47,816 nt of DNA from Gloeobacteraceae cyanobacterium SOY_34_metabat_371 (GCA_031398925.1 JANNOF010000131.1:1-47816); one strand, 5' to 3'; positions 5,253-45,119 are shown, numbered from the stretch's first letter. The notes: generated by a model not told the origin, from the sequence alone. Translations and numbers: made by a program.

Positions 5253-5260
5253 CGGTCTGC

Positions 5261-5869: not shown

Positions 5870-5919
5870 GCTAAGGGATCAGCACAGAAACACTAATTTT
5901 TGTAAAGGTATTCGCCCCA

Positions 5920-7221: not shown

Positions 7222-7302
7222 TAGAACGACTATTGCTCCAGATCCTTAAGTTTTTCCTATCCTTTGGCAGATACTCTAGAGGAGATCTTTGGAGTGGGCA
7301 GG

Positions 7303-8103
7303 ATGGCGATTCGTTTAGTGGCCTTAGACTTAGATGGAACAGTAGTCCCCCATACGGGTCAACCCTCAAAGGCTGTTTTAGAGGCCATAGCCCAAGTGCA
7401 GGCGAAGGATATTCCTGTCGTCGTGATCACGGGACGGATGTATCAATCGGCGCTACGCTACCACCAACTGTTGGCATCGACCCTACCCTTAGCCAGTTAT
7501 CAGGGTGCTTTAATTAAAGACCCCCATACCGGAGCAGTACACCGTCATCAGCCCGTAGACCCCGTTTTAGCCCAGGATCTAGTGGCCTTTCTACGTAGCC
7601 AAGATGTCGCCATTCATGGCTATTTTGACGATACCCTCTATGTTCAGCACCCCCTCCAGCCAATCAGTACGGAATATAGCCAGTACACCGGGGTAGCCCT
7701 CAACATCGTGCCGGATCTAAGCGCACTTTTAGTACAGCCGCCCACTAAGATCCTGGCCCTAGGAGAAGCAGCCAATATGGATCTGTTGCATACGCTAAAA
7801 AATCGCTATGACCCTCAGATCGTCCATTTCACCCGGTCTACGGATTTTTTTATTGAAGCGGTGCATCCATTGGTTCATAAGGGTCAGGCACTGGCCTACG
7901 TCGCCGAGGAGCTGTTGGGTCTGAGCGCCCAGGAAGTCCTCGCCATAGGCGATCATTTTAATGATCTTGAGATGCTCAGCTATGCCGGAGTTGGAGTAGC
8001 CATGGGGACTGCACCCTTGCCTGTACAAGCCGTAGCCGATTGGATCGCACCTCCGGTTTTAGAAGATGGGGTCCGGGTGGCCCTAGAACGGTTTGTACTT
8101 TAA
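7303..8103 (+). CDS. Cof-type HAD-IIB phosphatase
   Basis: Motif I LVALDLDGT, motif II VVITGR, C-terminal GDHFNDLEM (motif IV). ATG at 7303 is preceded by GGAG. The ORF track extends to a TTG at 7264. Confidence 0.85.
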   Translation: MAIRLVALDLDGTVVPHTGQPSKAVLEAIAQVQAKDIPVVVITGRMYQSALRYHQLLASTLPLASYQGALIKDPHTGAVHRHQPVDPVLAQDLVAFLRSQDVAIHGYFDDTLYVQHPLQPISTEYSQYTGVALNIVPDLSALLVQPPTKILALGEAANMDLLHTLKNRYDPQIVHFTRSTDFFIEAVHPLVHKGQALAYVAEELLGLSAQEVLAIGDHFNDLEMLSYAGVGVAMGTAPLPVQAVADWIAPPVLEDGVRVALERFVL

Positions 8104-8623: not shown

Positions 8624-9679
8624 CTAGCCCCCCGCAGGCTCGTAGTATTCATTAGCCAAGGCGAGGGCAGATTGAAATTTATCCTTAGGATCAAGGTCTT
8701 TACGACGGGCAATCTGGGCAAATTTATTGATATCTGCGGGTAAAAAAGCAAAACTACGTTGTTCGGTAACAATGTCAACGATCAGATCACACAGGGATTT
8801 TTGATAATCGTTATAAAAGATTTCACCCAGAGCATTAAGCCGTCCATCGGGAACAGGATTATTGAAGTCGATGGCTTGAAGATTCCCCTCATAATCCACA
8901 AACATTTCGACAGAATTCATCTCATAGCCCAATACCCGGTTGATCACTTTGCAGGTATCGATCACCTGTTGACCTAGATCAGGATTGAGAAAATTCGGCT
9001 CAAAGAAGTATTGACTCGCATCCCTTTTCCGAAAGATATACTTAATGGGAATGATCTTGCGCCCCACACATAGTGCGCGGACTTGCCACTCATAGGGCGT
9101 ATGAACTTTTTGTTGGATCATCATGACCTGAGACCCAGACTGATCATAGTAATACAGTAACTCTTGCATAGTGTGGGCAATATTAAAGCCAATGGCCTCA
9201 CGACCCTCAGCGGGCTTGATCACAATGGGCCAACCTAAGTCTTCGGTCATGGCGCGCCAGTCAAAATGCCGATGATATTTAAAATCATCTTGTGTAAATC
9301 CCGGTACCTCTTTGGGGGGCAGAATGTAGGTCTTGGGAATACTAATGCCCAGTTCACGGGCGACCATATAGGCCGCATCTTTATTGCGGAGGTAATAGTA
9401 AAAACTAAAGGGGTTGTTGATCATATATACCCCCCGAAAGGCATAGCCCATAAAAACGCCTATGGCTTGGGGATAGAGATAGCTATAACGGTCTAAAATC
9501 AAATGATATTTAGTCTGATAATCCAACGTCACCTCATGGATCATCATGTGTTCGGCGCGGATCTTATAGTGCTGTCCATTTTTAGCCGTAACGGGCGCTA
9601 AATTGTTTAAGCGATGGATCGTTTCATCGCCAAACGTTTCACTGAAGTGCAGGCTTCCTACCCAAAAATCATGGATCAT
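8624..9679 (-). CDS. ATP-grasp fold ligase, substrate unknown
   Basis: 351-aa ORF. Central WPIVIKPAEGREAIGF (ATP-grasp lysine strand), followed by MMIQQKV and the C-terminal NSVEMFVD...AIDFNNP acidic Mg/ATP region, laid out as in RimK/glutathione-synthetase-like proteins. Confidence 0.65.
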   Translation of the reverse strand: MIHDFWVGSLHFSETFGDETIHRLNNLAPVTAKNGQHYKIRAEHMMIHEVTLDYQTKYHLILDRYSYLYPQAIGVFMGYAFRGVYMINNPFSFYYYLRNKDAAYMVARELGISIPKTYILPPKEVPGFTQDDFKYHRHFDWRAMTEDLGWPIVIKPAEGREAIGFNIAHTMQELLYYYDQSGSQVMMIQQKVHTPYEWQVRALCVGRKIIPIKYIFRKRDASQYFFEPNFLNPDLGQQVIDTCKVINRVLGYEMNSVEMFVDYEGNLQAIDFNNPVPDGRLNALGEIFYNDYQKSLCDLIVDIVTEQRSFAFLPADINKFAQIARRKDLDPKDKFQSALALANEYYEPAGG

Positions 9680-15709: not shown

Positions 15710-15886
15710 GGTAGCTCCGTTGACCTTTCATCCTATTATCATGCAACTTTCCCTAAGATTTTTTTTTATAAGGCTTGGCCTAGAGAGAACCATAGCTTAA
15801 GATAGGGTTGCTAGTAGTACAAACATGTTAGTGTACTGCTGGTAGCCAGTCATGATCTGTGGTTAATGCTGAGGAGTGTGCGCGTA

Positions 15887-17719
15887 ATGAAAGCCAAGTC
15901 CGTAAATCTGCTTGCTGAGTACCGGAGTCTGGTGGTAACCGCCACTGCGGTTATGGCCCTAGGAAGTTTGCCCGTTTTTGCCCTGCCTGATACATCAGTA
16001 AAGCAAATGATGGATGGCAGTACTACTGAGGTAGCTCAGGTTAGTTCTGTTTCCGAATTAACTGACGTTGATCCCAATAGCTGGGCCTTTCAAGCGCTTA
16101 AGTCCGTAGTCGAGCGCTATGGTTGTTTAGAAGGTTATCCTTCTAAGGTTTACCTAGGAAATAAGGCACTGACTCGTTATGAGTTCGCCGCTGGCCTTAA
16201 TGCCTGCCTCGAAAAAATCAACGAACTCATTGCCGGTTCAACCGGTAATTTTGTGACCAAGGACGATCTGGCTTCCCTCCAGCGTCTTATGGAAGAATTT
16301 AAGGCTGAGCTAGCCACGCTCAAGGCACGGATCGAAGGCCTTGAAGCCCGTGCTCAAGAACTTGAAGACAACTTGTTTTCAACCACCGCCAAGCTTGACG
16401 CTGAAGTGATCTTCTTGGTCGCTGGTGCTGATTCTGGCGGCGATGGTATCAAAGTCAACAATGCTGAATTGGTCTCTGGGCAAGATAAAGAAGCCGATGT
16501 GATCAGCGGTAGTTCGCAGAACGTTACCTTTGGTGGACGGACCCGGTTCAATATCCGTGCGCGCAACCTAGGTACCAAAGGCGATCAACTGCGGATCCGC
16601 CTCACGGGTCGTACTGGGGATGGTTCTTTTTACGGAACCAACCCTATCGTTACGCCTGGGGCCGATGGTAACCCTAACTTTAGTCGCGTAGGCCGGATCG
16701 ATATTCTTGGTTCTCAAGGTGGCGAAACCACCAACGGCAACCAACCCGTAACTTTTGACAAGGTGTTTTACGAGTTTCCGATGTTTGATAACGCAGTCCG
16801 ACTGACCTTTGGTCCCCGCGTTGAAAACATCGATTACCTAGGCACCAACACCAACACCGCTAACGAAGGTAAAAACTTCGCCCTGCGGGTGTTTCGCCGC
16901 AACACTGCTATCTCCTTGCTCAGCACCTCTGTGCCTGGGGCAGCCTTGACCTGGAAGATCAGCCCTCAAGTTGATCTGCGCGCTTACTACGGTGCCACCG
17001 CTGGTGGTCGTTCCTCCCGTGATGGCAGCGGTGGGCTCGGTGGACCCGGTCAGCTTGCTGTGGAACTAGGGTTCAGACCTTTTAAAGAGGTCAACCTAGG
17101 GGTGGGCTACTACCGCACGGTTTGTAATGCCGCCAATTCTGGTCTTGGATCTGCTGAAGAGTCTCCTAGTACCCAAAACCGTCTCTTTTGTGATGCTAGC
17201 GTCGGCGGGAGCACCCGCTATCCCTTCAACTCTGGTGTCATCAACAACGTCCAACACGACACGTTCAACGCCCACTTAGATTGGGATATCAGCCCGAGTA
17301 TCAGTCTATTTGGTCGGGTGTCCTACGGTAACGTCTCCCTCAGTGATCTCAACATTGGCGACAATGTCGATTACGGCGGTGATCTTTCCTACAACGAATG
17401 GATGGCTGGGGTGACCTTTAAAGATCCCTTCGGACGCAAGGGGGATGCGATTGGTCTAGCAGTGGTTCAACCTGCTTTTATCACCAGCAACAACACCTAC
17501 TCTGGAACCTTTAACTCAGATGTACTGCAAAGTGTTCCTGGGGAAAAAGGTGGCGATTTGCCCCGCGTCGCCGAGTACAACTACGGTGCTTACTATCGCC
17601 TAGGCGTTGCCAAGGGGATCAGCATCACACCTGAGCTGTACTTCATCACCAATGCTGGTGCCATCGAAGGCCAGCCCACGGTGACCATCGGTTTACTCAA
17701 GGCAACATTCGAGTTCTAA
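15887..17719 (+). CDS. Outer-membrane porin, SLH domain + coiled coil + OprB-like beta-barrel
   Basis: Signal-like N-terminus from MKAKSV (ATG 15887; the ORF track starts at 15866). SLH motif WAFQALKSVVERYGCLEGYP...LTRYEFAAGLNACL, then a coiled coil, then a long Gly/Asn/Tyr-rich alternating barrel ending in a terminal F (ATFEF). Confidence 0.85.
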   Translation: MKAKSVNLLAEYRSLVVTATAVMALGSLPVFALPDTSVKQMMDGSTTEVAQVSSVSELTDVDPNSWAFQALKSVVERYGCLEGYPSKVYLGNKALTRYEFAAGLNACLEKINELIAGSTGNFVTKDDLASLQRLMEEFKAELATLKARIEGLEARAQELEDNLFSTTAKLDAEVIFLVAGADSGGDGIKVNNAELVSGQDKEADVISGSSQNVTFGGRTRFNIRARNLGTKGDQLRIRLTGRTGDGSFYGTNPIVTPGADGNPNFSRVGRIDILGSQGGETTNGNQPVTFDKVFYEFPMFDNAVRLTFGPRVENIDYLGTNTNTANEGKNFALRVFRRNTAISLLSTSVPGAALTWKISPQVDLRAYYGATAGGRSSRDGSGGLGGPGQLAVELGFRPFKEVNLGVGYYRTVCNAANSGLGSAEESPSTQNRLFCDASVGGSTRYPFNSGVINNVQHDTFNAHLDWDISPSISLFGRVSYGNVSLSDLNIGDNVDYGGDLSYNEWMAGVTFKDPFGRKGDAIGLAVVQPAFITSNNTYSGTFNSDVLQSVPGEKGGDLPRVAEYNYGAYYRLGVAKGISITPELYFITNAGAIEGQPTVTIGLLKATFEF

Positions 17720-18173: not shown

Positions 18174-18648
18174 AGTATCTTTAGCCCTACTTCCCCCGTA
18201 CACGATCACCTGTTCACGGAGTTGGCAGGGGGGGCTATTACTCAAGTTTTTCCAAGCTGCCTATAGAGAATTAAGCCCGGATCAGGACTTAGCTCATCTG
18301 GCCCAAACCGTAACCCTTTTTTATCAACCGGACCGCTCACCGGTATGGTTTCTCACCCATGCGAGCGAGACAGTGGGCTGTCTTTGGTGCGGACCTGGTG
18401 TGGATCAAACCAACGGGGCACGGACAGCGTATATTTTTTTAGTGTATATTCACCCCGATCACCGCCGTCTGGGGTTAGCGACCTATCTGTTGCATACGGC
18501 CTTTCGGTGGGCTAAGGCCCAAGGTCTAACCGAGATCCAACTCCAAGTTTTAATCGAAAGTGAAATAGCCCAGGTGCTTTATCGCAACCTGGGCTTTAAG
18601 ACACGGGCCTATGTACTGAGTCGGTCTTTAGGGAGTGATGGCAGCTAA
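18148..18648 (+). CDS. GNAT-family N-acetyltransferase
   Basis: Motif A region VYIHPDHRRLGLATYLLHTAFRWAKAQG, then a C-terminal YRNLGF. The start is uncertain (TTG 18148 or GTG 18166). Confidence 0.75.
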   Translation: MIAYCLVSEVSLALLPPYTITCSRSWQGGLLLKFFQAAYRELSPDQDLAHLAQTVTLFYQPDRSPVWFLTHASETVGCLWCGPGVDQTNGARTAYIFLVYIHPDHRRLGLATYLLHTAFRWAKAQGLTEIQLQVLIESEIAQVLYRNLGFKTRAYVLSRSLGSDGS

Positions 18649-20226
18649 TTTAGAAACCCCATTAAAGACCTGAAACTTAGCCAGTTGGAAGGCTTGGGCG
18701 GTCTGCGCAGTCACGGTGCCAACCGCCTCATAGGAAACGGTTACGGCTTCTTCACGCACAATCATCTTAGTAAAGACATGGTACGTAAGATCCAAGTACT
18801 TCATGCTGGGATTAGCACCCAAGATCAAGGTTTGACCCAATTCTGTCAGGTCCAATCCCCCTGTGAGTTCGGCAATTCCAGAGGAAGTTACCGAGCCACC
18901 GACGACCTCCACAGCCACGGAGTCGCTGGTCTCATCTAAAAAGTCGGGGCGCAGTTCTCCGGCGTAGCAATTGTGAATATCTCCCGTGCAGACCACTACG
19001 TTTTTGATCCCTTCGTCTTTGATGAATTGCAAGATCCCTTTGCGCTCTTCGGGGTAACCATCCCAGGCATCCAAGTTAATATAAACACCCGGATCCACCG
19101 CTAGGGGGTTTTTAAAGATCTTTTGGGGCAGATCCTTACCGGCTCCCGATCCAAAGCCCAAGATGGTAAAGCGCTGCCACATAACCTCACTCATCAACAT
19201 TTTCCACCGCCGCGTAGGGCTGGATTGCAGCGCATCTTTTAACCAAGCCGCTTGGGTAGTGCCCAACATCGTCCGGTTAGGATCATCCAAACCTTCGCAA
19301 CCCGTGGTAAAAAAGCTGGTGTCACAGATTAAGGGATCACGGTACTGACGTTCATCGGTCAAAATGAGATCCATCAATAACCCAAAGGGTACTTTGCGGT
19401 ACATCCGCAGTTCATTGGGGTCCGTGGTGCTCTGGGGCGCCATAGGCATGTATTCCATAAATGCCTGGTACCCATCTTGACGCCGACCTGGGGCTACGGT
19501 GTCTACGGTCGTGCCTGCATAGTCATTAAACACTTCGTGGTCATCCCACATGATGAACCAAGGAAACAGGCGGCGGACTTCCCGCATATTGGGATCAGTT
19601 AGATAGAGTTTATATTTTTGGCGGTACTCATCTAAGACCTTAGCTTCGCCATCGCCAATGGTATCTTCGCGGACCGCACCTTGGAAGGCAGCACTTCCGG
19701 TTTCATAAATGTTATCGCCCAGATGGACACAAAAATCTATGTCATCTTGGGTGGCCATGTTGGCATAAACCGTATAGTACCCGGCGGTAAAGTCTTGACA
19801 GGAAACATAGGCGAAGCGGACTTCTTCAATACGCTGACCATAATTAGGGATCGTTTTAGTCCTACCCGTCACACTGGTGTAGCCCGTAGTGGTGGTAAAG
19901 CCATAGTAATAGCGGGTAAAGGGTTCTAGTCCAGACACCCGGAGCTTGACGGTCCAGTCACGGGTAGCACTGGTGGTAAAGGTTCCGGTGGCTACAGGCT
20001 GCGATAGATCGGCATTGCGGGAGACTTTGTAGGAAACCACAACACTGGTACCGCTTTGGGCAAACTCAGGCACCCTGGTCCAAATAACCACGCTGTAGGG
20101 GCGGGGGTCACCGGAGGCTACCCCCACATCTCCTTCAAGCTGTGCTTGAGCACTGGGGGCCAAAGTGAGTAACATAGGAGCGGCAACGGAAGCTTTTAAA
20201 AGACTGCGACGATTGGGCATGATCAT
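18628..20226 (-). CDS. phoD: PhoD-family alkaline phosphatase / phosphodiesterase with Tat signal
   Basis: Twin-arginine signal NRRSLLKASVAAPMLLTLAPSAQA. Metallophosphatase motifs VHLGDNIYE and WDDHEVFND. Candidate starts are GTG 20232, ATG 20226 and ATG 20220. Confidence 0.85.
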   Translation of the reverse strand: MIMPNRRSLLKASVAAPMLLTLAPSAQAQLEGDVGVASGDPRPYSVVIWTRVPEFAQSGTSVVVSYKVSRNADLSQPVATGTFTTSATRDWTVKLRVSGLEPFTRYYYGFTTTTGYTSVTGRTKTIPNYGQRIEEVRFAYVSCQDFTAGYYTVYANMATQDDIDFCVHLGDNIYETGSAAFQGAVREDTIGDGEAKVLDEYRQKYKLYLTDPNMREVRRLFPWFIMWDDHEVFNDYAGTTVDTVAPGRRQDGYQAFMEYMPMAPQSTTDPNELRMYRKVPFGLLMDLILTDERQYRDPLICDTSFFTTGCEGLDDPNRTMLGTTQAAWLKDALQSSPTRRWKMLMSEVMWQRFTILGFGSGAGKDLPQKIFKNPLAVDPGVYINLDAWDGYPEERKGILQFIKDEGIKNVVVCTGDIHNCYAGELRPDFLDETSDSVAVEVVGGSVTSSGIAELTGGLDLTELGQTLILGANPSMKYLDLTYHVFTKMIVREEAVTVSYEAVGTVTAQTAQAFQLAKFQVFNGVSKLAAITP

Positions 20227-20261
20227 TCTCACGGGGTGCCAAAATTCAGGCTACGCCCAAG

Positions 20262-25444: not shown

Positions 25445-26821
25445 GTGTTACGGCAACTGACACCGGCTACCACCTTGATCGAGATCTACAAAACTCTTTC
25501 GACCGAGCCACTTGAGCAACCGGAGGAGTTAAAAGCATTTTATCGTTCAGAGCTAAATCAGGCGCGGGGAAAGGATATTGTTGCACGTATGCAACGGTTG
25601 CTAGCAAATGCATACCAATCCGTGCCCTATCGCACTTTCCTGATGGGACATCTCGGGGTAGGTAAGTCTACGGAAATGAGTCGGCTAATTCAACAGATCC
25701 AAGGGCAGTTTGAAGTGATCCGGCTAAGTGCCAAAGAACTTGACCCAGTAGGATTTAAGGTTTTTGATGTGTTGATCTTGATGATTATGGAAATCACTGA
25801 ACGTACCATCAAGATCCCTGGTGTAAATAGCCCATCTTTTAATAGACAGTTAGAAGAATTCCAGCGTTGGTTTGATGTAGAAAAGCGTTTGTTTACCGAA
25901 GCAACGGATGTAGCAGGGAGTGTGGTTGCTGGTGCAGGAATGACTGGAGAAAACCCAATCGCTAAGATATTCGGCTTCTTTGGGCAGTTGCGCGGTGAAA
26001 TCAAATACGCTACGACCCGTAAGCGTGAAGTGGTCGAGTATCGCTTGAGCCGTATTCCAGAACTAGTGAGTTTAGCAAACAAGATTCTAATCGAATGCAA
26101 TCAACTACTCGGTGAAGTAAATAACAAAGAATGGATCTTTATTTGGGAGGATTTTGATAAACGGATCGCGCCTGAACGGATCGAAGAACTCTTTATTACT
26201 AATGGTAGTGTGTTTGCTGATTTGAATGTCCATGCTATTTTTAATTTACCCATTGGCTTGGGCTATTCAGGACGTGCTAAGCAATTACCATTTGACTGTG
26301 TGGCGGTTCCTGACACACCAATTTTTACCGCTGATCATCAACTAAATGAAGATGGTCTTCTGGCACTACGGGCTATTGTCAAGACTAGGGTCCAATTAAA
26401 TCTATTTGCATCTGACCAACTCGATAGACTGATCATTGCTTCTGGGGGCAATATCCGCGATCTTTTTTCGATGATTATCTTTGCCGCGACTTCTGCTGCA
26501 GAGTGTATTTCAGAGCCAGATGTAACCCAGGCTATTAATGATCTACGTTTACAGTACCGTAACCGTTTAGGAACAAGCGAATATGATAAAGATAAAATTG
26601 AATATTCAGAGAAAGCTAAGCGACTGATCGCGATTTATAACCGAGAGCCTGAGTCCGATATTCCTAGTCCGGTATTGTATGTCTTACTGCGTTCACGGGC
26701 GGTCTTAGAATTTAACGGTAGGGGTTGGTTTGGAGTACATCCGTTGGTAGTAGATATCCTTGCCGATCAGGGGCGGATCGAACCGGATGCTACAGGGAAG
26801 GTGCCCGGTGGTTCTAACTAG
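25445..26821 (+). CDS. STAND/ORC-Cdc6-like P-loop NTPase (NBD, helical, winged-helix-like), function unknown
   Basis: 458-aa ORF with a GTG start. Walker A GHLGVGKST, Walker-B-like WIFIWEDFD, GGNIRD sensor-like motif, and a C-terminal wH-like segment (LYVLLRSRAVLEFNGRGWFGVHPLV). GC is markedly lower than the flanks (sampled lines 32-35%). Confidence 0.7.
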   Translation: MLRQLTPATTLIEIYKTLSTEPLEQPEELKAFYRSELNQARGKDIVARMQRLLANAYQSVPYRTFLMGHLGVGKSTEMSRLIQQIQGQFEVIRLSAKELDPVGFKVFDVLILMIMEITERTIKIPGVNSPSFNRQLEEFQRWFDVEKRLFTEATDVAGSVVAGAGMTGENPIAKIFGFFGQLRGEIKYATTRKREVVEYRLSRIPELVSLANKILIECNQLLGEVNNKEWIFIWEDFDKRIAPERIEELFITNGSVFADLNVHAIFNLPIGLGYSGRAKQLPFDCVAVPDTPIFTADHQLNEDGLLALRAIVKTRVQLNLFASDQLDRLIIASGGNIRDLFSMIIFAATSAAECISEPDVTQAINDLRLQYRNRLGTSEYDKDKIEYSEKAKRLIAIYNREPESDIPSPVLYVLLRSRAVLEFNGRGWFGVHPLVVDILADQGRIEPDATGKVPGGSN

Positions 26822-38058: not shown

Positions 38059-38739
38059 ATGGTTCTACTATCTCAAAAAATAATCTACCCTGAGTCCGAT
38101 GGTCAACCAATGGCAGATAATACGGAGCAATTCAATTGGATTGTCCTGATTAAAGAAAACTTAGAAATACTTTTTGCCCATGATCCAGTAGTTTTTGTAG
38201 CAGGAGATCTATTGTGGTATCCCATTCAAGAAGATAACAAACTACATCAAGCCCCTGATGTTCTAGTTGCTTTTGGACGACCCAAGGGCAAGCGGGGTAG
38301 TTATCAGCAGTGGAAAGAAGACAATATAGCGCCGCAAGTGGTGTTTGAGATTCTTTCCCCTGGCAATACCCTCAAAGAAATGGCGAAAAAACTTAATTTT
38401 TATCATCGTTATGGGGTCCAAGAATATTACTTATATGATCCCGATAAAAACGATCTAGGGGGTTGGTTGAGAATAGACAATAATCTAGAAGTCATTGAAG
38501 AAATCGAGGGTTGGGTAAGCCCCCGTTTGGGGATCCGTTTTGTGATGACCGCAGATATTTTAGAAATTTATGGCCCTGATGATCAAAAATTTTTAAGTTC
38601 TGTACAGTTAGCACAACGAGCACAGCAAGCTGAACAAGGACAAGTCATCGAACGACAACGGGCTGAACGATCTGAGCAACGAGCAGAACGTCTAGCAGCT
38701 AAATTACATGCACTCGGCATAGATCCCGATCAAAGCTGA
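38059..38739 (+). CDS. Uma2-family (DUF820) PD-(D/E)xK endonuclease-like protein
   Basis: YPESDGQPMADNT, PDVLVAFG and VVFEILSPGNT...K...YHRYGVQEYYLYDP are hallmark Uma2 motifs. GC is lower than neighbouring genes. Confidence 0.85.
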   Translation: MVLLSQKIIYPESDGQPMADNTEQFNWIVLIKENLEILFAHDPVVFVAGDLLWYPIQEDNKLHQAPDVLVAFGRPKGKRGSYQQWKEDNIAPQVVFEILSPGNTLKEMAKKLNFYHRYGVQEYYLYDPDKNDLGGWLRIDNNLEVIEEIEGWVSPRLGIRFVMTADILEIYGPDDQKFLSSVQLAQRAQQAEQGQVIERQRAERSEQRAERLAAKLHALGIDPDQS

Positions 38740-38927: not shown

Positions 38928-39641
38928 ATGCGTAAGACGATCTACTTCCTTTTAGGTGAAAAGGCGGGTCGTACCGTAGTGGGCAGTTGGAACTGGTTGT
39001 GGGGTAAGCCTGTGGACCAGGGGGGACAGGTAGCCGTGGCCGTAGCCGAAGAATCGTTAAAAACGATGCAAGAATCGATCCAAAAGTTTACCCAGGCAGT
39101 GGCTACACAGGTCGCCGCCTATCAACGTGCCCAACAAAAATATAACGCCAAGGTCAAAGAATACCAGACCTACGAACAACAGGTACGGACAGCCCAGAAA
39201 AATGGCAGTCAAGATGCCGCGCGCCTAGCAATGGGTAGATTGCTTCAGATCGAACAGATCCTGCCGCAACTCGAAGAACAGGTGAAACAGGCTGAACAAT
39301 TCGTGGGGACCGCCAAAGAAAAGCTTAACCGCGAAAAAATGAAACTGGAGAATTACAAGACCGATTTGCAAAACATGAAAGATATGTCTGAGATCAATGA
39401 GGCCCTAGCACAAATGGCCCAAGTTAATTCCCAATACAGTATTGACTCGGCCCGCTCACAATTTGAAGAAGCCAAAGGTGCCGTTCAACGCCGTAATCTC
39501 AAAGTCGCCGCTTTTAATGAACTCTCGGATAATCCCACGGAAAAGCTGGCGGCGGATCTGGATAAAATGACCCTTGATGATGAGATCTCGCGCCGTTTAG
39601 CGATGATCGATACCCCCACACCCAAAAAGCTAACGGAGTAA
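38928..39641 (+). CDS. PspA/IM30 (Vipp1)-like coiled-coil protein with atypical N-terminus
   Basis: ATG 38928 is preceded by AAGGGA. TMQESIQKFTQAVATQVAAYQRAQQKYN...QDAARLAMGRL parallels the IM30/PspA helix 1-3 pattern (DMQEDLVQLRQAVA...EE.LAREAL). A long heptad-rich Q/E/K/A body follows. The N-terminal 30 aa (MRKTIYFLLGEKAGRTVVGSWNWLWGKP) is unlike the usual amphipathic helix. Confidence 0.55.
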   Translation: MRKTIYFLLGEKAGRTVVGSWNWLWGKPVDQGGQVAVAVAEESLKTMQESIQKFTQAVATQVAAYQRAQQKYNAKVKEYQTYEQQVRTAQKNGSQDAARLAMGRLLQIEQILPQLEEQVKQAEQFVGTAKEKLNREKMKLENYKTDLQNMKDMSEINEALAQMAQVNSQYSIDSARSQFEEAKGAVQRRNLKVAAFNELSDNPTEKLAADLDKMTLDDEISRRLAMIDTPTPKKLTE

Positions 39642-39646
39642 TACAC

Positions 39647-40573
39647 ATGGCCCAAAATAGCGGTCCTCCCCCAATTATTTTTATCTTGGCGGCCCTAGTC
39701 ATTGCTGGCGGCGGTTTCTACTGGTTTACCAATCAAAATAGTAGCCCCACCGCAACCAATAGTGCTACCCCCGTCGAAGTGGTACCGGGCGCTGATCCCC
39801 CTAGTACCCCCGCACCAACCCCCAGCCCTGAAGCCCTAGCCATCCCCACAACACTCCCCCAGGGCAGCTCAGTCAAAGTAGACGGATCTACAAGCATGGT
39901 CCGTCTCAACAAAAATCTAGGCACTGCCTTTCAGGCTAAATTTCCGGGCGTTGGCTACACCTGGAAAGCCAACGGTAGTTCTAACGGGATCAAAGCCCTA
40001 GTTGCCAAAGAAATCGATGTAGCAGCTTCTTCTCGCCCACTTAAGGAAGAAGAAGTCAGCCAAGGGCTCGTTGCCGTCCCCGTCAAAACCGATGCCATCG
40101 CAGTGATCATTGGCAAGGCCAATGCGTTTAGTAGTGGGTTGACCTCTGAGCAGTTACGCAATGTTTTTTCGGGCCAAGTCAATAACTGGAGTCAAGTCGG
40201 CGGTACGGCGCTACCGCTTAGGGTCGTCAACCGCAACCCGGAAAGCGGTACCTATGGCTTATTCAAGGACGCCGTTTTGGGGGGCAATGCATTTGGCAAT
40301 GGCCCTAACTGGACGACGATGTCTCGGGATGTAACCACCGAGCTGATCCAAAAATTAGGTACCAATGGCATTGGCTATGCCAACTACAGTCAGATCAAGA
40401 CCCAAAAGACGATCAAAGCCTTGGCTATTGATGGGGCGACCCCTGATTCTCCCAACTATGGGTTACTCAGTGTGCTGTATTACGTTTACCGGTCCGATAG
40501 TTCAGAGGCTGCCAAGGCTTTTATTGCCTTTGCCACTAGCCCCGAAGGACAAGCTGTTGCTGTTGTGGAGTAA
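39647..40573 (+). CDS. PstS-like (PBP_like_2) phosphate-binding-protein homologue with N-terminal TM anchor, copy 1
   Basis: GPPPIIFILAALVIAGGGFYWF anchor, a Pro/Thr/Ser linker, then GSTSMV, NGSSNGIKAL, VAASSRPLK.EE, NRNPESGTY and GIGYANYS, which is the PstS/PhoT-family order of motifs. Confidence 0.8.
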   Translation: MAQNSGPPPIIFILAALVIAGGGFYWFTNQNSSPTATNSATPVEVVPGADPPSTPAPTPSPEALAIPTTLPQGSSVKVDGSTSMVRLNKNLGTAFQAKFPGVGYTWKANGSSNGIKALVAKEIDVAASSRPLKEEEVSQGLVAVPVKTDAIAVIIGKANAFSSGLTSEQLRNVFSGQVNNWSQVGGTALPLRVVNRNPESGTYGLFKDAVLGGNAFGNGPNWTTMSRDVTTELIQKLGTNGIGYANYSQIKTQKTIKALAIDGATPDSPNYGLLSVLYYVYRSDSSEAAKAFIAFATSPEGQAVAVVE

Positions 40574-40575
40574 CC

Positions 40576-41460
40576 ATGTCCCAAAGTGGTCCCCCGCCCA
40601 TTATTTTTGTCCTAGGTGCTTTGCTCTTAGCAGGCGGGGGCTACTACTGGTACACGCTCCAGGGTAAAGATCCCCTAGCTACGGTACGCAATGCCATTGA
40701 CAAAAGCCAGTCCCCGGCCCAGTTAACGGTACCCCAATCTTTACCCGCCAATGCGGGGATCAAGATCGATGGCTCCACCAGTATGGTGCGCTTAAATGTC
40801 AATTTAGGTAAGCTCTTTCAAAAGAAATTTCCTACAGCTAGCTATACGTGGCAGGCCAATGGTAGCTCCAAAGGGATCAAAGCCTTACTGGACGGAACCG
40901 TTGATCTCGCGGCTTCCTCCCGTGCGCTTAAGCCCGAAGAAGTCAGTCAGGGCTTAGTGGCGGTACCGGTTAAAAATGATGCCATTGCCGTGATCGTGGG
41001 TCGGGGTAATCCTTTTCGCGGGGAATTGACCCTAGAGCAACTCAAACAGATCTTTACGGGGACACTCAAAAACTGGTCTGACGTCGGGGGACCACCCCTG
41101 CCCTTGCGCGTGATTAATCGTAATCCCGAAAGCGGTACCTATAAGCAGTTTGAAGATACGGTACTAGGGGGCGGTAGCTTTGGTAGTGGACCTAACTGGA
41201 CAACGATGCCCAGGGATGTGACAACCGAGTTGATCCAAAAACTGGGTACCAATGGCATTGGCTATGCCAATTACAGCCAGATCCGCGATCAAAAGACAAT
41301 TCGGGCGGTAGCTTTAGAAGGGGCTAGCCCTGATGCTGCCAACTACCCCATTGTTAGTATTCTGTACTATGTCTACGGTCCCAACAGCTCAGAGGCGGCC
41401 AAAGCTTTTGTGGCTTTAGCAACGAGTACCGAAGGTCAAGCCGTCGCCGTGATCGACTAG
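40576..41460 (+). CDS. PstS-like phosphate-binding-protein homologue with N-terminal TM anchor, copy 2 (tandem paralogue)
   Basis: Same architecture and motifs as copy 1 (GPPPIIFVLGALLLAGGGYYWY; GSTSMV; NGSSKGIKAL; LAASSRALK.EE; NRNPESGTY; GIGYANYS). Starts 2 nt after the copy 1 stop. Confidence 0.8.
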   Translation: MSQSGPPPIIFVLGALLLAGGGYYWYTLQGKDPLATVRNAIDKSQSPAQLTVPQSLPANAGIKIDGSTSMVRLNVNLGKLFQKKFPTASYTWQANGSSKGIKALLDGTVDLAASSRALKPEEVSQGLVAVPVKNDAIAVIVGRGNPFRGELTLEQLKQIFTGTLKNWSDVGGPPLPLRVINRNPESGTYKQFEDTVLGGGSFGSGPNWTTMPRDVTTELIQKLGTNGIGYANYSQIRDQKTIRAVALEGASPDAANYPIVSILYYVYGPNSSEAAKAFVALATSTEGQAVAVID

Positions 41461-41840
41461 GGCAGGGGGGGAGTCAAGTCTACCGGCTTATTTTCCGTGG
41501 GAATAATTTCTCCCGTGACGGTATTTGTCGTCCCTTTGGCTTGGGGTTGGATCAACTCCGGGGTAATCTTGAGCGTATTGCGGGAGCGAAACTTAGTGAT
41601 CTCATCGGCCATATTTTGATTGGCATCTTTTTTAAAGTCTTTGAAACTCTTGGGATTTGCTAAGTTACTGCGGTGGAGTAGATCAAAGATCCCTAAACCG
41701 CCACCCGTGGCCCCAAAAGGATTATTTTCGTCTTCGGTCTTAGTATCGACGGTTCCGGTAAATTCTCCGCCGAAGGTTTGGGCACCCACGCTAGGAGTCA
41801 AAAGAAGGATACCGATTATGAGTGTGGTCCAAGTGCGCAT
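41457..41840 (-). CDS. Hypothetical secreted protein
   Basis: 127-aa ORF with a signal peptide (LIIGILLLTPSVGAQT). Convergent 4-nt overlap with PstS-like copy 2. No family recognised. Confidence 0.45.
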   Translation of the reverse strand: MRTWTTLIIGILLLTPSVGAQTFGGEFTGTVDTKTEDENNPFGATGGGLGIFDLLHRSNLANPKSFKDFKKDANQNMADEITKFRSRNTLKITPELIQPQAKGTTNTVTGEIIPTENKPVDLTPPLP

Positions 41841-42866: not shown

Positions 42867-43894
42867 ATCCTGCGACAAACAGCTAAGGTTTTTTGGGCAG
42901 TGGCTTCCCAACTAAAGCCCTGGGCTTGCTGGATCCCTTGCCGAGCCAGTTGATCTCGCCATATTGGGTCACTTAAAAGCTGGGTAATCACCCGCACAAG
43001 ATCCGTAGGGGATTGGGGATCAAAATAGGCCACCGCTTGACCCCCCACCTCCGGGAGGCTGCTACTATGGGCGCAGATCACCGGGGTGCCACAGGCCATG
43101 GCTTCTAAAATAGGTAGCCCAAAACCCTCAAAAAGACTAGGAAAAATAAAGGCTGTGGCCCGTCGATAAAGCTGGGGCAGCGCCTCTGGCGGTATGTAGT
43201 CCAACCAACGAATCCTTCCTTTGCCCGCACGCTGTAACTCAGGGGTATACCGGGGGTCAGCACGCCCTGCAATCCATAATTCTCCCTGCCATTGGGTCTG
43301 GATCTGCCCAAAAGCCTGGATTAGGGTCATGAGGTTTTTGTGGGGTTCATGGGAACCGACATATAAAAGATAGGGTACTGGGGGCGCGACTTCGGCCTGA
43401 GCAAAAAAACGTTCGCGGTCATAGGCCAAAGGGATCACCGTGATCCGTTCTGGGGCAAGGTTATAAAATTCCGTCAGATCCCGCTGGGTCTGGTGCGAAT
43501 TACAGATGATCTGCCGCGCCGAACGTAGCGAAAGGGGCACCCAGTAGCGAAAGTAGGCCAATTTTTGCCCATAAACGTGCGGGTAACGCAGGGGGATCAC
43601 ATCGTGAGCCATCACCACTTGCGGATAAAGCCCCCACCCCCCTTCGGGTACCGGATGAAAAACAAGATCCCCTTTTTTGATCTTACGGGGCCAGTGGGTT
43701 TGATTCCAGAGTAACCGGGTCGCGTGGGAATGGACGGGAACGGGCTGATAAGGGTGATCCCAGGCATAACCCTGGGGTAAGTAGGCGACCAGATCAGGAA
43801 TACACTGCTGCCACTGTTTGAGCATATTGCGGCAATAGGTCGCAATCCCCGTTTGCGGCAAGTGTAGATAGCTACCGTTGAAATAAAAAGTCAT
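42863..43894 (-). CDS. Glycosyltransferase family 4 (GT-B, retaining)
   Basis: C-terminal FIFPSLFEGFGLPILEAMACGTPVI (E-x7-E region) typical of GT4. Confidence 0.85.
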   Translation of the reverse strand: MTFYFNGSYLHLPQTGIATYCRNMLKQWQQCIPDLVAYLPQGYAWDHPYQPVPVHSHATRLLWNQTHWPRKIKKGDLVFHPVPEGGWGLYPQVVMAHDVIPLRYPHVYGQKLAYFRYWVPLSLRSARQIICNSHQTQRDLTEFYNLAPERITVIPLAYDRERFFAQAEVAPPVPYLLYVGSHEPHKNLMTLIQAFGQIQTQWQGELWIAGRADPRYTPELQRAGKGRIRWLDYIPPEALPQLYRRATAFIFPSLFEGFGLPILEAMACGTPVICAHSSSLPEVGGQAVAYFDPQSPTDLVRVITQLLSDPIWRDQLARQGIQQAQGFSWEATAQKTLAVCRRI

Positions 43895-45072
43895 CCGCCC
43901 TTAGGGGTACTAGACAAACGGGATGCGTTGGGGGGATGGATCTCTAGGGCCTTAAACCCAAGTGCTTGCCATTGGCCCTTTGCATTTTTTTGAACCTCAA
44001 CGGTCAAACTAACGGGTCCATCCATGGTGTAGCGAAAGCCCTTCCCCATGGCATCGGTAAACAGCAAGACCAGTCCCCGTTCGTTTAAGGGATAGCGTTC
44101 AGGATCAATCTGGATCTGAGTCAATTGTTTTTGCAGGGGAGCACTTAAAAATGGCCGGGTCCACTGGGGAGCGCGGTCCTTACGCATCAAAGCAACTAAT
44201 GCCCCATAGAGCGCGTTATCGGGCACATTGAGCACTTGGCTACTGACATTCCGATAGCCCTGGGGTCCCCATTGCCACAGGGAGCGCTGACCCACCAAAC
44301 CGCAACTATCACAGGCCGCCATGATCCGCTCAGGATCTAATAACAGGGTATCCAGCTTGAGATTGGGGGTATTCCCAATGAATTCACTGGTGCCAAAGGC
44401 ACTGTACATGGCTTCGGGAATATAACTGGGGCTGACATCTTTAAACCGGGTACCCTCTTGACGAAAAACCTTAATAAAGGGAGCGGTATCTTCTAATTGC
44501 TGCGTCTGCCCATTGACGATTAAAAACGGCGTTTTTTCTACCTTAACGATGCGTAGGGCATTCACCTGGGCCTGCCACTCTAGCTCGTAGTCATTAAGAA
44601 TGACGACGTGGGACTCAGATTGCCAAAGGGCAAGGTGACGAATATCCAACTCCGATTCAACCACACTCACTTGGATCAGTTGCCCCTGAGTCAATCGCGT
44701 ATAGGTAAATTGAAAGCGTTCATCGGGGGCTAGGGCCTGGAGCTGGGCCACCAGAGGTTGGTTAGTTTGCTTTACATTGACTAAAAATTGCTCTAGGTGA
44801 CGTACAAATTCTTGGCGTTGAATGATTAAAAAATCAGCACTCCGGGCTAAAGCCGGACCGTTGCCCGTTTGTAGCGCCACTTCATAGCTATCTAGTTGTT
44901 GGGCATAGTCCGCCAAGATAAGTTCCAACTGTTGGGTGTTGGCCAGATCTTGGGGCAGAGGATCGGTGGCTGGGGTAGACCTTAATAAGTAAAAAGAAAT
45001 AGCCCCTGCTATCAAAAACAGTACAGGTAGCCAAACCACAGGCCGGGTAATGATCCGCAAAGTTGAGACCAT
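43891..45072 (-). CDS. Hypothetical membrane-anchored protein
   Basis: ATG 45072 is preceded by GAGGAG. The N-terminal TM helix is VVWLPVLFLIAGAISFYLL and the rest is predicted soluble. A 4-nt overlap with the downstream GT4 gene suggests co-translation. No family recognised. Confidence 0.5.
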   Translation of the reverse strand: MVSTLRIITRPVVWLPVLFLIAGAISFYLLRSTPATDPLPQDLANTQQLELILADYAQQLDSYEVALQTGNGPALARSADFLIIQRQEFVRHLEQFLVNVKQTNQPLVAQLQALAPDERFQFTYTRLTQGQLIQVSVVESELDIRHLALWQSESHVVILNDYELEWQAQVNALRIVKVEKTPFLIVNGQTQQLEDTAPFIKVFRQEGTRFKDVSPSYIPEAMYSAFGTSEFIGNTPNLKLDTLLLDPERIMAACDSCGLVGQRSLWQWGPQGYRNVSSQVLNVPDNALYGALVALMRKDRAPQWTRPFLSAPLQKQLTQIQIDPERYPLNERGLVLLFTDAMGKGFRYTMDGPVSLTVEVQKNAKGQWQALGFKALEIHPPNASRLSSTPKGG

Positions 45073-45119
45073 AGGGATTGCGCTCCTCAAAGCGCTAGGG
45101 TCAGCCCTCAATAACTGTT

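Follow-up and report, generated by a model that had tools for sequence, protein, structure and literature searches.

Almost without exception, about 190 independent loci from cyanobacteria encode a PspA/IM30-family protein with a Trp-rich N-terminus, here called PspA-W, directly ahead of a membrane-tethered solute-binding protein. This linkage is not due to chance and is near-obligate. The sequence comparisons point to a previously undescribed PspA partner system that is present in most cyanobacterial lineages.

Results

Organization of the locus

In the window, by which we mean the whole 47.8-kb stretch of DNA that was analysed, pspA-W is followed by the genes for two tandem binding proteins, PBP1 and PBP2 (Table 1). 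The open reading frame coordinates, the shared + strand and the intergenic gaps of 5 and 2 nt were exactly those given in the first-pass annotation. Direct reading of the sequence placed a GGAG 7-9 nt before each downstream ATG of the trio, and the layout of the two junctions is compatible with translational coupling. Across homologous loci, the gap between pspA-W and the binding-protein gene ranged from -4 to about 100 nt.

The observation that pstC, pstA and pstB were not nearby held up for the window: none of these genes, and no BPD_transp or ABC ATPase domain, occurred among the 30 further open reading frames, and tblastn searches of the window for pstC, pstA and pstB found none. PspB, PspC, PspF, LiaI, LiaF and two-component genes were likewise missing from the open reading frames of the window and from the corresponding locus of Anthocerotibacter panamensis.

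Table 1. Features of the pspA-W locus, in coordinates of the window.
Feature	Position	Strand	Basis
pspA-W (PspA/IM30-family, ESCRT-III-like paralogue, 237 aa)	38928..39641	+	ORF, Pfam PF04012
Trp-rich N-terminal segment, codons for residues 10-28 (GEKAGRTVVGSWNWLWGKP), at the position of helix alpha0	38955..39011	+	Conservation in 14 homologues
Junction 1: GGAG, stop TAA (39639-39641), 5-nt spacer TACAC	39635..39646	+	Direct sequence reading
PBP1, membrane-tethered Sll0540-type (S-type PstS-like) binding protein, 308 aa	39647..40573	+	PBP_like_2; 9L8J match
PBP1 predicted signal-anchor, residues 5-27: SGPPPIIFILAALVIAGGGFYWF	39659..39727	+	Logo of 79 homologues
PBP1 tether, residues 28-73, Pro/Thr/Ser/Ala-rich low-complexity linker	39728..39865	+	Family composition
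Junction 2: GGAG, stop TAA (40571-40573), 2-nt spacer CC	40567..40575	+	Direct sequence reading
PBP2, tandem paralogue of PBP1, 294 aa	40576..41460	+	PBP_like_2; 64% identity to PBP1
PBP2 predicted signal-anchor, residues 4-26	40585..40653	+	Same anchor as PBP1

Linkage of pspA-W to binding-protein genes

PspA-W was encoded in 296 GTDB species genomes and, among the matches listed, almost all were cyanobacteria. A PstS-like gene lay directly downstream of pspA-W on the same strand in 12 of 20 loci of a first set, and in 76 of the 78 best alignment-derived pspA-W loci with room for one. As a reverse and independent test, we scanned for a DNA pattern encoding GPPPIVFIL. Of the 107 usable in-frame matches, 103 lay immediately behind pspA-W. 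Two of the remaining four were second copies within the same operon; in another (L184), pspA-W was split by an insertion, and in the last (L281) it was missing and an IS605-type TnpB gene stood upstream. None of the 107 matches carried the anchor on any type of protein other than a binding protein. The survey is phylogenetically redundant in that it includes many Microcoleus genomes.

In the complete genome of A. panamensis, pspA-W and the binding-protein gene share 4 nt, and the genes on either side are unrelated and lie on the other strand. Tandem binding-protein copies, as in the window, also occur at L046, L062, L083, L090, L248 and L256. Since pspA-W was found without a binding protein at two loci (L007 and L028), and Sll0540, the Synechocystis counterpart of PBP1 and PBP2, occurs without PspA-W, neither partner is strictly dependent on the other. 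Across 219 related loci (1.84 Mb) pstC or pstA occurred at none, compared with 60 of 73 ordinary PstS loci examined as a control.

A gene-neighbourhood survey had been set out beforehand as a check, and the linkage proved to be among the most conserved features of the PspA-W clade. Two comparative surveys of PSP systems (PMC11237479, PMC9239133) and a full-text literature search contained no description of the PspA-W/binding-protein pairing, in line with the first-pass annotation, which was aware of no described association of PspA with PstS.

Expression and regulation

Co-transcription of pspA-W and the binding-protein gene was observed in a Microcoleus relative, in which contigs from RNA libraries of biocrust metatranscriptomes, which may contain carried-over DNA, span the junction of the two genes; one such contig of 1547 nt covers positions 5109-6650 of L049. 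Between positions 38000 and 42000 of the window we counted 8 promoter-like sites versus 4.8 expected, none of them upstream of 38928 on the + strand, and 1 terminator-like site versus 5.3 expected; neither count amounts to a usable signal. An upstream alignment of the window and five Gloeobacterales relatives contained no conserved block corresponding to a Pho box or shared operator. The window sequence itself was found only in one freshwater-sediment DNA metagenome, and a Mastigocoleus query for RNA evidence returned one run of unclear type.

PspA-W keeps the family core and differs at its N-terminus

The assignment of the first gene to PspA/IM30 was borne out by the Pfam profile PspA_IM30 (PF04012), against which it scored 50.8 bits (gathering cut-off 33.9, E 2.2e-13). 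Residues 41-222 aligned to profile positions 29-209 of 220, and thus the first ~40 residues are not covered by the family profile. A PspA-W family profile compared with PDB chains retrieved Vipp1/PspA at E 4e-9, with residues 38-222 falling on Vipp1 26-212. The AlphaFold2 model, of moderate confidence (pLDDT 69.6, about 50 or lower at the N-terminus), was all-helical, with a long hairpin (H33-91 and H95-146) followed by the shorter helices H154-169, H173-198, H204-213 and H216-227. When this model was searched against the PDB with Foldseek, ranks 1-12 were all Vipp1/PspA (probability 1.0, E 1e-3 to 4e-2), and CHMP1B and CdvB appeared below them. Judged by profile and model, PspA-W is a third cyanobacterial PspA/IM30 paralogue that has kept the ESCRT-III-like helical core.

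The Trp-rich N-terminus noted earlier is real and strongly conserved, with G10, A13, G14, R15, W21, N22, W23, W25, G26 and P28 invariant across 14 diverse PspA-W homologues (down to 38% identity). Its earlier description as non-canonical can be refined, in that the segment occupies the position of helix alpha0 of PspA and Vipp1. Its best 11-mer had a strongly favourable Wimley-White interfacial energy of -5.3 kcal/mol, whereas canonical alpha0 sequences gave about 0, and its helical hydrophobic moment was 0.16 versus 0.32-0.37 for the canonical sequences. The Trp-rich segment (WNWLWGKP) would appear to replace the canonical amphipathic helix alpha0 with a sequence of interfacial character that is not a classic amphipathic helix, and the N-terminus of PspA-W is likely to be a membrane-binding segment of another kind than alpha0.

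PBP1 and PBP2 are related to the orphan PstS Sll0540

Both paralogues had been described as having a PstS-type domain, and both matched PBP_like_2 (PF12849), PBP1 with 129 bits and PBP2 with 118, while staying below the cut-offs of the NCBIfam PstS models TIGR02136 (144.1 and 143.2 versus 206.6 bits) and TIGR00975 (41 and 47 versus 205). The closest PDB relative of PBP1 was 9L8J, 'Sll0540 protein' (E 1.2e-68, about 50% identity); the next PDB family followed at E 8e-24. PDB matches also included 4Q8R and 1TWY. The binding proteins, anonymous in the first-pass annotation, are by these comparisons orthologues of Synechocystis Sll0540, an orphan fourth PstS with a solved structure. Sll0540 of Synechocystis sp. 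PCC 6803 is described as a 'fourth' PstS that is encoded apart from the pst genes; it was reported to bind phosphate weakly and to show little response when phosphate is limiting (PMC13614923).

We used the nine phosphate-ligand residues of C. perfringens PBP-1 (PMC5381212) as the reference list for the anion-binding site. In the alignment all nine S-type positions were present and identical to PBP-1 in both PBP1 (S81, T82, S83, S111, S129, R196, S200, G201, T202) and PBP2 (S67, T68, S69, S97, S115, R182, S186, G187, T188). They were kept in 80-84 of 84 linked binding proteins, and by this measure the predicted phosphate site is under selection. The position that discriminates D-type from S-type sites, Ser59 of PBP-1, corresponds to S129 in PBP1 and S115 in PBP2, marking both as S-type; position 41 is Ser in these two proteins and Thr in Sll0540. 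The ectodomain is probably an S-type, micromolar phosphate binder.

A conserved anchor accompanies PspA-W

The N-termini of PBP1 and PBP2 read SGPPPII[FV]...GGG[FY]YW[FY], and the logo of 79 linked homologues reads [KR]-S-G-P-P-P-I-V-[FY]-I-L...G-G-G-[YW]-[WF]-F, with PPPI invariant in 79/79 motif-bearing linked binding proteins. Within the family, the uncharged hydrophobic stretch of the anchor has a median length of 24 residues and is preceded by a predicted cytoplasmic tail with a median of 4 residues ahead of PPPI. Cysteine is missing in 82/84 members and hence there is no lipobox, consistent with the earlier view that these proteins are not lipoproteins. The tether is typically 54 residues long (median), and P, A, T and S make up 57% of it; the 9L8J crystal construct begins past this linker.

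In the PstS-like class, Lys and Arg averaged 1.2 before the helix and 1.5 after it, and therefore charge alone leaves the topology of this anchor undecided. An N-in orientation is favoured by the Peripla_BP_6 partners described below, in which 3-4 Lys/Arg precede the helix. We considered a cytoplasmic binding domain as the main reading and rejected it on the basis of these Lys/Arg residues and of CHAT and caspase domains that lie N-terminal of the same anchor. A 44-residue anchor profile searched against a 5.8-billion-protein set for other clients gave only weak scores (best E 0.06).

SGPPPI was absent from all four orphan proteins of the Sll0540 type whose genes have no pspA-W up to 8 kb away; these represent four loci and perhaps three independent lineages (Synechocystis salina, a related MAG, Hydrococcus and Coleofasciculus) and retain the helix end GGG[WY]W. 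In a divergent PspA-W subclade (45-50% identity), pspA-W is followed by Peripla_BP_6 proteins with KKS[ILP]PPI[IAV][YW] anchors, and at L256 a single pspA-W is followed by both classes of binding protein, each with GPPPIVFIL. Other relatives carry a further domain: a protein 62% identical to PBP1 (P0126) consists of a CHAT protease, a TM segment (SSPPAPIAYIF...GGGVYYWY) and the binding protein, others have a caspase or DUF7469 ahead of the TM helix, and DUF4912 is joined to the binding domain in 38 of 57 longer relatives. No fusion of PspA to a binding protein was present among the best 150 representatives.

Discussion

We tentatively favour, at somewhat less than even confidence, a model in which the anchor is the membrane receptor of PspA-W and the ectodomain is its periplasmic ligand input. 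PspA-W and one or more tethered binding proteins would make up a self-contained plasma-membrane module in many cyanobacterial lineages. The binding protein would be held by an N-in signal-anchor on a long flexible tether, with [KR]SGPPPI at the cytoplasm-proximal end of the anchor. Where the membrane borders the cytoplasm, this PPPI end would contact the Trp-rich N-terminus of PspA-W. We infer this contact from co-occurrence; the PPPI and Trp-rich motifs are both too invariant for covariation to be shown. The anchor might then serve PspA-W as LiaI serves LiaH or PspB/C serves PspA, and the ectodomain would supply the ligand input, most likely by occupancy-dependent clustering of anchors rather than by a conformational push, given that the ~54-residue tether is disordered. 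The output would be a PspA-W polymer that assembles against the cytoplasmic side of the plasma membrane and stabilises or remodels it, and the binding proteins would be sensor or adaptor subunits, not dedicated PstCAB transport components.

The first-pass annotation had proposed that an ESCRT-III-like polymer uses the binding proteins as its sensors or scaffolds, and that they are not transport components. This is partly supported, and the support is all comparative: PPPI is lost where PspA-W is absent, the class of binding protein is exchangeable, cytoplasmic domains are wired through a TM helix to relatives inside the clade and close to it, and pstCAB is consistently absent. Against the receptor reading, the ~4-residue tail ahead of PPPI is a very small docking surface, and an intact phosphate site is equally expected of a transport protein that serves a distant PstCAB. 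A more far-reaching proposal is possible, if doubtful: an unrecognised transmembrane pathway by which periplasmic nutrient status directly sets how an ESCRT-III-like polymer assembles at the cyanobacterial plasma membrane, through a new interfacial contact of a Trp ladder with polyproline, and which would be ancient and common to Gloeobacterales and crown cyanobacteria. The ligands in such nutrient control would be phosphate or, in the Peripla_BP_6 variant, of the amino-acid type.

The best surviving alternative, which we regard as unlikely, reverses the roles, with PspA-W serving the binding proteins. Polymerised beneath the membrane, it would use the anchors to cluster or immobilise binding proteins for phosphate (or amino acids) that go on supplying distant ABC transporters, so that a capture array or reservoir arises in the periplasm close to those transporters. 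The fully conserved phosphate ligands are in keeping with this, as are a long flexible tether suited to reaching a transporter and two to three tandem copies that resemble client dosage. Orphan Sll0540 keeps its fold and site without PspA-W, which implies a function of the binding protein's own, and an exchangeable ectodomain is as compatible with 'different cargo, same scaffold' as with 'different sensor'. However, linkage to pstCAB, usual for ordinary pstS, was seen at 0/219 loci, relatives inside and near the clade that are wired to effector-like CHAT or caspase domains have the architecture of signalling rather than transport, and Sll0540 was reported to be of low affinity and barely responsive to phosphate limitation (PMC13614923).

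It is improbable that the genes are merely co-expressed, their products making no contact and the operon bringing together an accessory PstS for a distant PstCAB and a PspA paralogue that protects the membrane, for example under nutrient or envelope stress. Operons often join genes that are linked functionally and not physically, the tail on the cytoplasmic side spans a median of only 4 residues, and both genes are found alone in a few genomes; anchor conservation would then reflect constraints of membrane insertion or lipids. A near-invariant 11-residue TM-anchor sequence from Gloeobacterales to Nostocales would, however, be unusual for a passive anchor. The motif is also gone exactly where PspA-W is absent, the anchor is common to an unrelated binding-protein fold that is also encoded behind PspA-W, and the association is near 100% in both directions. 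A role for PspA-W confined to biogenesis, as a chaperone that aids insertion of proline-capped signal-anchor proteins or shields the membrane meanwhile and has no later role, is very unlikely: PspA/Vipp1 proteins are linked to Sec/Tat export efficiency and membrane-protein insertion, pspA-W comes first and is tightly coupled as for a chaperone made before its client, and the pairing follows the anchor rather than the ectodomain, but orphan Sll0540-type proteins, albeit with a different N-terminal cap, insert without PspA-W, and a full ESCRT-III-like polymerising core seems excessive for the task.

As a candidate adaptor, the tethered binding protein can be compared with PspB/PspC of E. coli, LiaI of B. 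subtilis and PspM of mycobacteria, which are encoded beside a pspA-family gene and are thought to recruit or regulate the PspA-family protein at the membrane (PMC11237479, PMC9239133). The window likewise has a small membrane-anchored partner beside a pspA-family gene. We found no sequence relationship of its partners to PspB/C or LiaI and, unlike PspB/C, LiaI and PspM, the partner bears a complete periplasmic solute-binding domain on a tether, of a class that is exchangeable between PBP_like_2 and Peripla_BP_6. Nor, in contrast to classical Psp and Lia systems, is a transcription factor or two-component system linked here.

PspA-W itself resembles PspA, IM30 (Vipp1) and LiaH (PF04012; 6ZVR, 7O3W, 8QFV) in size and in its predicted helical core alpha1-alpha5, and is expected to be peripheral on the cytoplasmic face of the membrane; it differs in having a longer Gly- and Trp-rich interfacial segment instead of alpha0. 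Unlike Vipp1, with which it shares about 20-25% identity, it has no C-terminal extension, and it forms a separate clade. It is also carried by Anthocerotibacter, which lacks thylakoids, and presumably it therefore acts at the plasma membrane.

The binding proteins share with PstS of PstSCAB (TIGR02136/TIGR00975; for the S-type, C. perfringens PBP-1, 4Q8R) the Venus-flytrap PBP_like_2 fold and the nine ligands, but PBP1 and PBP2 score below the cut-off and are carried on a conserved predicted signal-anchor and would be neither lipoproteins nor free in the periplasm. Sll0540 (9L8J) is closer, with an S-type site, a TM anchor with GGGWW and no pst genes alongside, although Synechocystis-type genes lack the pspA-W neighbour and the SGPPPI cap and the window has two tandem copies. 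Single-pass proteins in which a CHAT or caspase domain or DUF4912 is combined with a binding domain, or a Ser/Thr kinase with Peripla_BP_6, have a similar anchor and identical or nearly related types of binding domain, up to 62% identical in sequence; in these proteins the cytoplasmic domain is covalently attached, whereas PspA-W, the putative effector here, is separate and would dock non-covalently.

In bacteria, the ESCRT-III superfamily is represented by the PspA/Vipp1 proteins. If the receptor model is true, the module would represent a new recruitment principle for the PspA family, in which a solute-binding protein is the adaptor and a Trp-rich segment replaces alpha0. The module also gives orphan phosphate-binding proteins of the Sll0540 type, for which a crystal structure is available, a first testable functional context. 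Because the module occurs in the thylakoid-less Gloeobacterales, it bears on the plasma-membrane role that the PspA family may have had before thylakoids and Vipp1 arose.

A three-gene module without Pst transporter genes

The first-pass annotation had described three co-directional genes separated by gaps of 5 and 2 nt, and our coordinates agreed with it exactly. The spacers are TACAC after the stop codon of gene 1 and CC after that of gene 2, and a GGAG lies 7-9 nt 5' of the ATG of both gene 2 and gene 3, a layout typical of translationally coupled genes. The product of gene 1 (PspA-W) matched Pfam PspA_IM30 with 50.8 bits against a gathering threshold of 33.9, while the products of genes 2 and 3 (PBP1 and PBP2) matched PBP_like_2 with 129 and 118 bits and were 64% identical to each other, which bears out their initial description as a PspA/IM30 protein followed by two PstS-like paralogues. 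The claim that pstC, pstA and pstB are absent nearby also held: Pfam scans of the 30 other ORFs of the 47.8-kb window revealed no permease or ABC ATPase, and tblastn of the same window gave no match to PstC, PstA, PstB or PhoU. Every testable particular of the original observation was thus confirmed.

Features of the module and other genes of the window
Feature	Coordinates	Strand	Product
Gene 1, pspA-W	38928-39641	+	237 aa
Gene 2, PBP1	39647-40573	+	308 aa
Gene 3, PBP2	40576-41460	+	294 aa
Convergent ORF	41457-41840	-	127 aa
Uma2-family gene	38059-38739	+	putative endonuclease
PhoD-like gene	18628-20232	-	alkaline phosphatase (304 bits)
OprB-family gene	15866-17719	+	porin
Hybrid sensor kinase gene	28-2394	+	GAF - HisKA - HATPase_c - receiver - Hpt
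ORF	25445-26821	+	458 aa
ORF	5920-7221	-	433 aa
ORF	8624-9679	-	351 aa
ORF	43891-45111	-	406 aa

The window derives from an uncultured member of the Gloeobacterales related to Anthocerotibacter and 'Candidatus Cyanaurora', with PspA-W identities of 77-79%. Its sequence was detected solely in one freshwater-sediment DNA metagenome, and no RNA for the window was found. The PhoD-like phosphatase and the OprB-family porin are its sole other phosphate-related genes; they lie ~20 kb from the module, and a linkage to it is unsupported. The convergent ORF overlaps the PBP2 stop by 4 nt and has a signal-peptide-like N-terminus (MRTWTTLIIGILLLTPSVGAQT); it matched nothing in Pfam, and the first 20 related loci contained no homologue of it. 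The Uma2-family gene lies just 5' of the module, and Uma2-type genes are also found a few kb away in A. panamensis (locus L300, 4170-4751) and, in Synechocystis salina (locus L101, 7040-7651), beside a gene of the Sll0540 type that has no pspA-W neighbour. Since this family is plentiful in cyanobacteria, its proximity is probably coincidence. The last four ORFs in the table had no Pfam match at E 1e-5, and the 458-aa ORF contains a motif caught by an ABC-ATPase regular expression (Walker-A-like or LSGGQ-like). The hybrid sensor kinase gene is at the left end, far from the module.

PspA-W is a PspA/IM30 protein with an atypical N-terminus

The Pfam match was limited to PspA-W residues 41-222, equivalent to profile positions 29-209 of 220. 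A profile built from 39 PspA-W homologues and compared with the PDB retrieved Vipp1/PspA chains (E 4e-9), aligning residues 38-222 with Vipp1 26-212. The AlphaFold2 model (pLDDT 69.6, pTM 0.60) was all-helical, with a long hairpin (H33-91/H95-146) and then shorter helices, and a Foldseek search with it placed Vipp1/PspA structures at ranks 1-12, with CHMP1B and CdvB after them. On both the sequence and the fold criteria examined, PspA-W belongs to the PspA/IM30 family, with an atypical alpha0 region.

The non-canonical, Trp-rich N-terminus noted at first reading falls outside the Pfam match and is strongly conserved: G10, A13, G14, R15, W21, N22, W23, W25, G26 and P28 were invariant in 14 homologues with identity down to 38%. 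Its best 11-mer, TVVGSWNWLWG, scored -5.3 kcal/mol on the Wimley-White interfacial scale. The alpha0 segments of Vipp1 from Synechocystis and PspA from E. coli score ~0 on this scale, a comparison that is indicative at most. The helical hydrophobic moment was half that of these alpha0 segments. Together, the invariant Trp pattern, the interfacial score and the halved moment make the N-terminus look like a constitutive Trp-rich interfacial segment at the usual place of the amphipathic helix alpha0.

pspA-W is linked to binding-protein genes across cyanobacteria

We carried out the neighbourhood survey that the first-pass annotation had proposed. Scanning one genome for each GTDB species first yielded 20 loci, and in 12 of them a PstS-like gene lay directly 3' of pspA-W. 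An alignment-based scan found a PspA-W relative in 296 genomes; in the best 80 loci, a PstS-like gene came next on the same strand in 76 of the 78 with room, at a distance of a few to ~100 nt, and several had two or three tandem binding-protein copies, as in the window. The complete A. panamensis genome shows a 4-nt overlap between the two genes, whose flanking genes are unrelated and on the opposite strand.

As a reverse test, we scanned the same genome collection for DNA encoding the anchor GPPPIVFIL and obtained at least 120 matches. Among the matches listed, 107 were in frame, N-terminal and had upstream room, and PspA-W lay directly upstream in 103 of these; 11 more were too near a contig end to judge. 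Two of the 107 were second copies within the same operon, and the remaining two are apparently decayed modules. In one of them (Microcoleus locus L184; 3447-3760 and 5272-5376) pspA-W is split by a ~1.5-kb insertion, and in the other (locus L281; 4036-5130) pspA-W is absent and an IS605-type TnpB gene lies directly 5' of the binding-protein gene. Four non-cyanobacterial matches among those listed fell outside ORFs >60 aa, and the anchor was found on no other protein type among the matches listed. Neither pstC nor pstA occurred in any of 219 PspA-W or anchor loci (1.84 Mb), one of which had a weak generic ABC ATPase match; in the control, pstC and pstA lay alongside in 60 of 73 non-cyanobacterial PstS loci. 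Carriers included Gloeobacterales, Microcoleus, Kamptonema, Tychonema, Nodosilinea, Leptolyngbya, Calothrix, Nostoc, Dolichospermum, Aphanizomenon, Mastigocoleus, Spirulina and others. The linkage is near-obligate across many cyanobacterial lineages.

The operon of Microcoleus orthologues (PspA-W 65% identical) was present in biocrust and soil metatranscriptomes. A 1547-nt RNA-library contig spanning 5109-6650 of locus L049 starts inside pspA-W (5001-5705) and, past the junction, takes in the whole binding-protein gene (5725-6645); contigs from two further runs likewise span the junction. These are contigs rather than reads, with DNA carry-over possible, and they support expression and co-transcription in Microcoleus.

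The binding proteins retain a ligand site

PBP1 and PBP2 scored 144 and 143 bits with the NCBIfam PstS-family model, below its cut-off of 206.6, and differ from PstS proper in this curated score and in linkage to pstCAB. The closest solved relative of PBP1, at E 1.2e-68, was 9L8J, the Synechocystis 6803 'Sll0540 protein' (structure paper: Wang et al. 2025, BBRC 775:152142), followed by C. perfringens PBP-1 (4Q8R). Sll0540 has been described as a 'fourth' PstS, away from pst1 and pst2, whose role is not known, with weak phosphate binding and little response to phosphate limitation; PspA is unmentioned there (PMC13614923). Synechocystis lacks a pspA-W neighbour.

Nine residues of PBP-1 contact phosphate: S11, T12, S13, S41, S59, R125, S129, G130 and T131 (PMC5381212). 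Their counterparts are S81, T82, S83, S111, S129, R196, S200, G201 and T202 in PBP1, and S67, T68, S69, S97, S115, R182, S186, G187 and T188 in PBP2. These positions were kept in 80-84 of 84 PspA-W-linked homologues, so ligand binding by the linked proteins is probably under selection. The site in PBP1 and PBP2 is 'S-type', with Ser replacing the low-barrier Asp, which the literature ties to lower affinity, and both are S-type PstS-like proteins belonging to the Sll0540 clade.

The anchor is conserved with PspA-W

The annotation had given genes 2 and 3 an N-terminal TM tether (GPPPIIF...GGG.YW). Cysteine was absent from 82 of 84 linked proteins, and the cap is intact in both window copies. In 79 linked proteins the consensus was [KR]-S-G-P-P-P-I-V-[FY]-I-L-L-F-L-L-L-A-G-G-G-[YW]-[WF]-F-F, with PPPI invariant in all 79. 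Median lengths were 4 residues for the tail preceding the hydrophobic stretch, 24 for the uncharged stretch and 54 for the linker leading to the domain; Pro, Ala, Thr and Ser make up 57% of the linker. Conservation of the anchor to this degree is unusual for a passive signal-anchor.

The anchor appears to be tied to PspA-W because the cap is lost without the partner, recurs on another fold and degenerates in second copies. Sll0540-type orphans without pspA-W within 8 kb (Synechocystis salina L101, a MAG L102, Hydrococcus L106 and Coleofasciculus L107) lacked the PPP cap in four of four cases (e.g. MGQKNEAVILIGALAITGVVVAGGGWWLW) and kept the GGG[WY]W end. In loci L008, L009, L011, L013 and L020, PspA-W homologues at 45-50% identity are followed by a ~470-aa Peripla_BP_6 protein instead of a PstS-like one, with anchors such as KKSLPPIIYLG, KKSIPPIAYVG and KKSPPPIVYIL. 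On the minus strand of a Phormidesmidales MAG locus (L256), a single pspA-W (2843-2133) is followed by a Peripla_BP_6-type gene (1930-698) and a PBP_like_2-type gene (597-1), both encoding tethered binding proteins with GPPPIVFIL; one PspA-W would here be common to two unrelated folds. Second tandem copies in L046, L062, L083 and L090 had degenerate caps.

Related binding domains are joined to cytoplasmic domains

The Peripla_BP_6 partners have 3-4 Lys/Arg ahead of the helix, which favours an N-in/C-out orientation. Two further genes adjoin modules of this type (L008 2115-4544(-) and 4486-5760(-), with counterparts in L012 and L020): one encodes a Ser/Thr protein kinase whose C-terminal Peripla_BP_6 domain shares 28-33% identity with the PspA-W partner, the other an NB-ARC/STAND NTPase. 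L008 is also unusual in that a DUF3592 membrane protein (6705-7349) separates pspA-W from the binding protein.

When 1.84 billion representative proteins were searched in full by HMMER with PBP1 as the query, many of its relatives turned out to belong to larger multidomain proteins with a single TM pass. One of them, P0126, consists of a CHAT protease, a TM helix (SSPPAPIAYIFLL...GGGVYYWY), a linker and the binding domain, and is 62% identical over the entire PBP1, anchor included, with PPxPI...GGG.YYWY kept. The domain N-terminal of the helix was CHAT in P0139, caspase (Peptidase_C14) in P0153 and DUF7469 in P0151; among longer relatives, 38 of 57 had DUF4912 plus PBP_like_2 and 8 had WD40 repeats. 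From the CHAT, caspase, DUF and kinase architectures, cyanobacteria repeatedly wire such binding domains via one TM helix to cytoplasmic domains. Unlike in the CHAT and caspase fusions, the cytoplasmic partner in the pspA-W module would be a separate polypeptide.

Discussion

Our tentative reading, held with somewhat less than even confidence, is that the anchored binding protein serves as PspA-W's membrane receptor, comparable in function to LiaI with LiaH or PspB/C with PspA, and as a sensor or adaptor with ligand input. The [KR]SGPPPI cap would sit at the cytoplasmic interface of the membrane, at the depth expected for partitioning of PspA-W's Trp-rich N-terminus, and cap and N-terminus may dock at this depth. 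Recognition of a polyproline turn by aromatic side chains is common in other systems. Because the ~54-residue disordered tether would be unable to pass on a conformational change, ligand input, if any, would come via occupancy-dependent clustering of anchors.

This reading and three others are each compatible with some of the data. PspA-W might act as a scaffold clustering binding proteins that work in transport, which we consider unlikely; the intact ligand site fits sensing and transport alike and does not discriminate. Mere co-expression of PspA-W and the binding proteins seems improbable to us. That PspA-W is a dedicated insertion chaperone we regard as more improbable still.

The first-pass annotation knew of no described PspA-PstS association, nor did the papers searched here describe one. 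A large PSP survey lists PspA dyads and triads, thioredoxin and NlpC as cyanobacterial contexts, with no PstS or binding-protein partner of PspA in its text or supplement (PMC11237479), and cyanobacteria are nowhere mentioned by Popp et al. (PMC9239133). Open-licence and preprint full text held nothing relevant on PspA with PstS, SphX or a phosphate-binding protein, which is not proof of absence. We regard the module as a PspA-family system whose putative membrane partner is of a new type.
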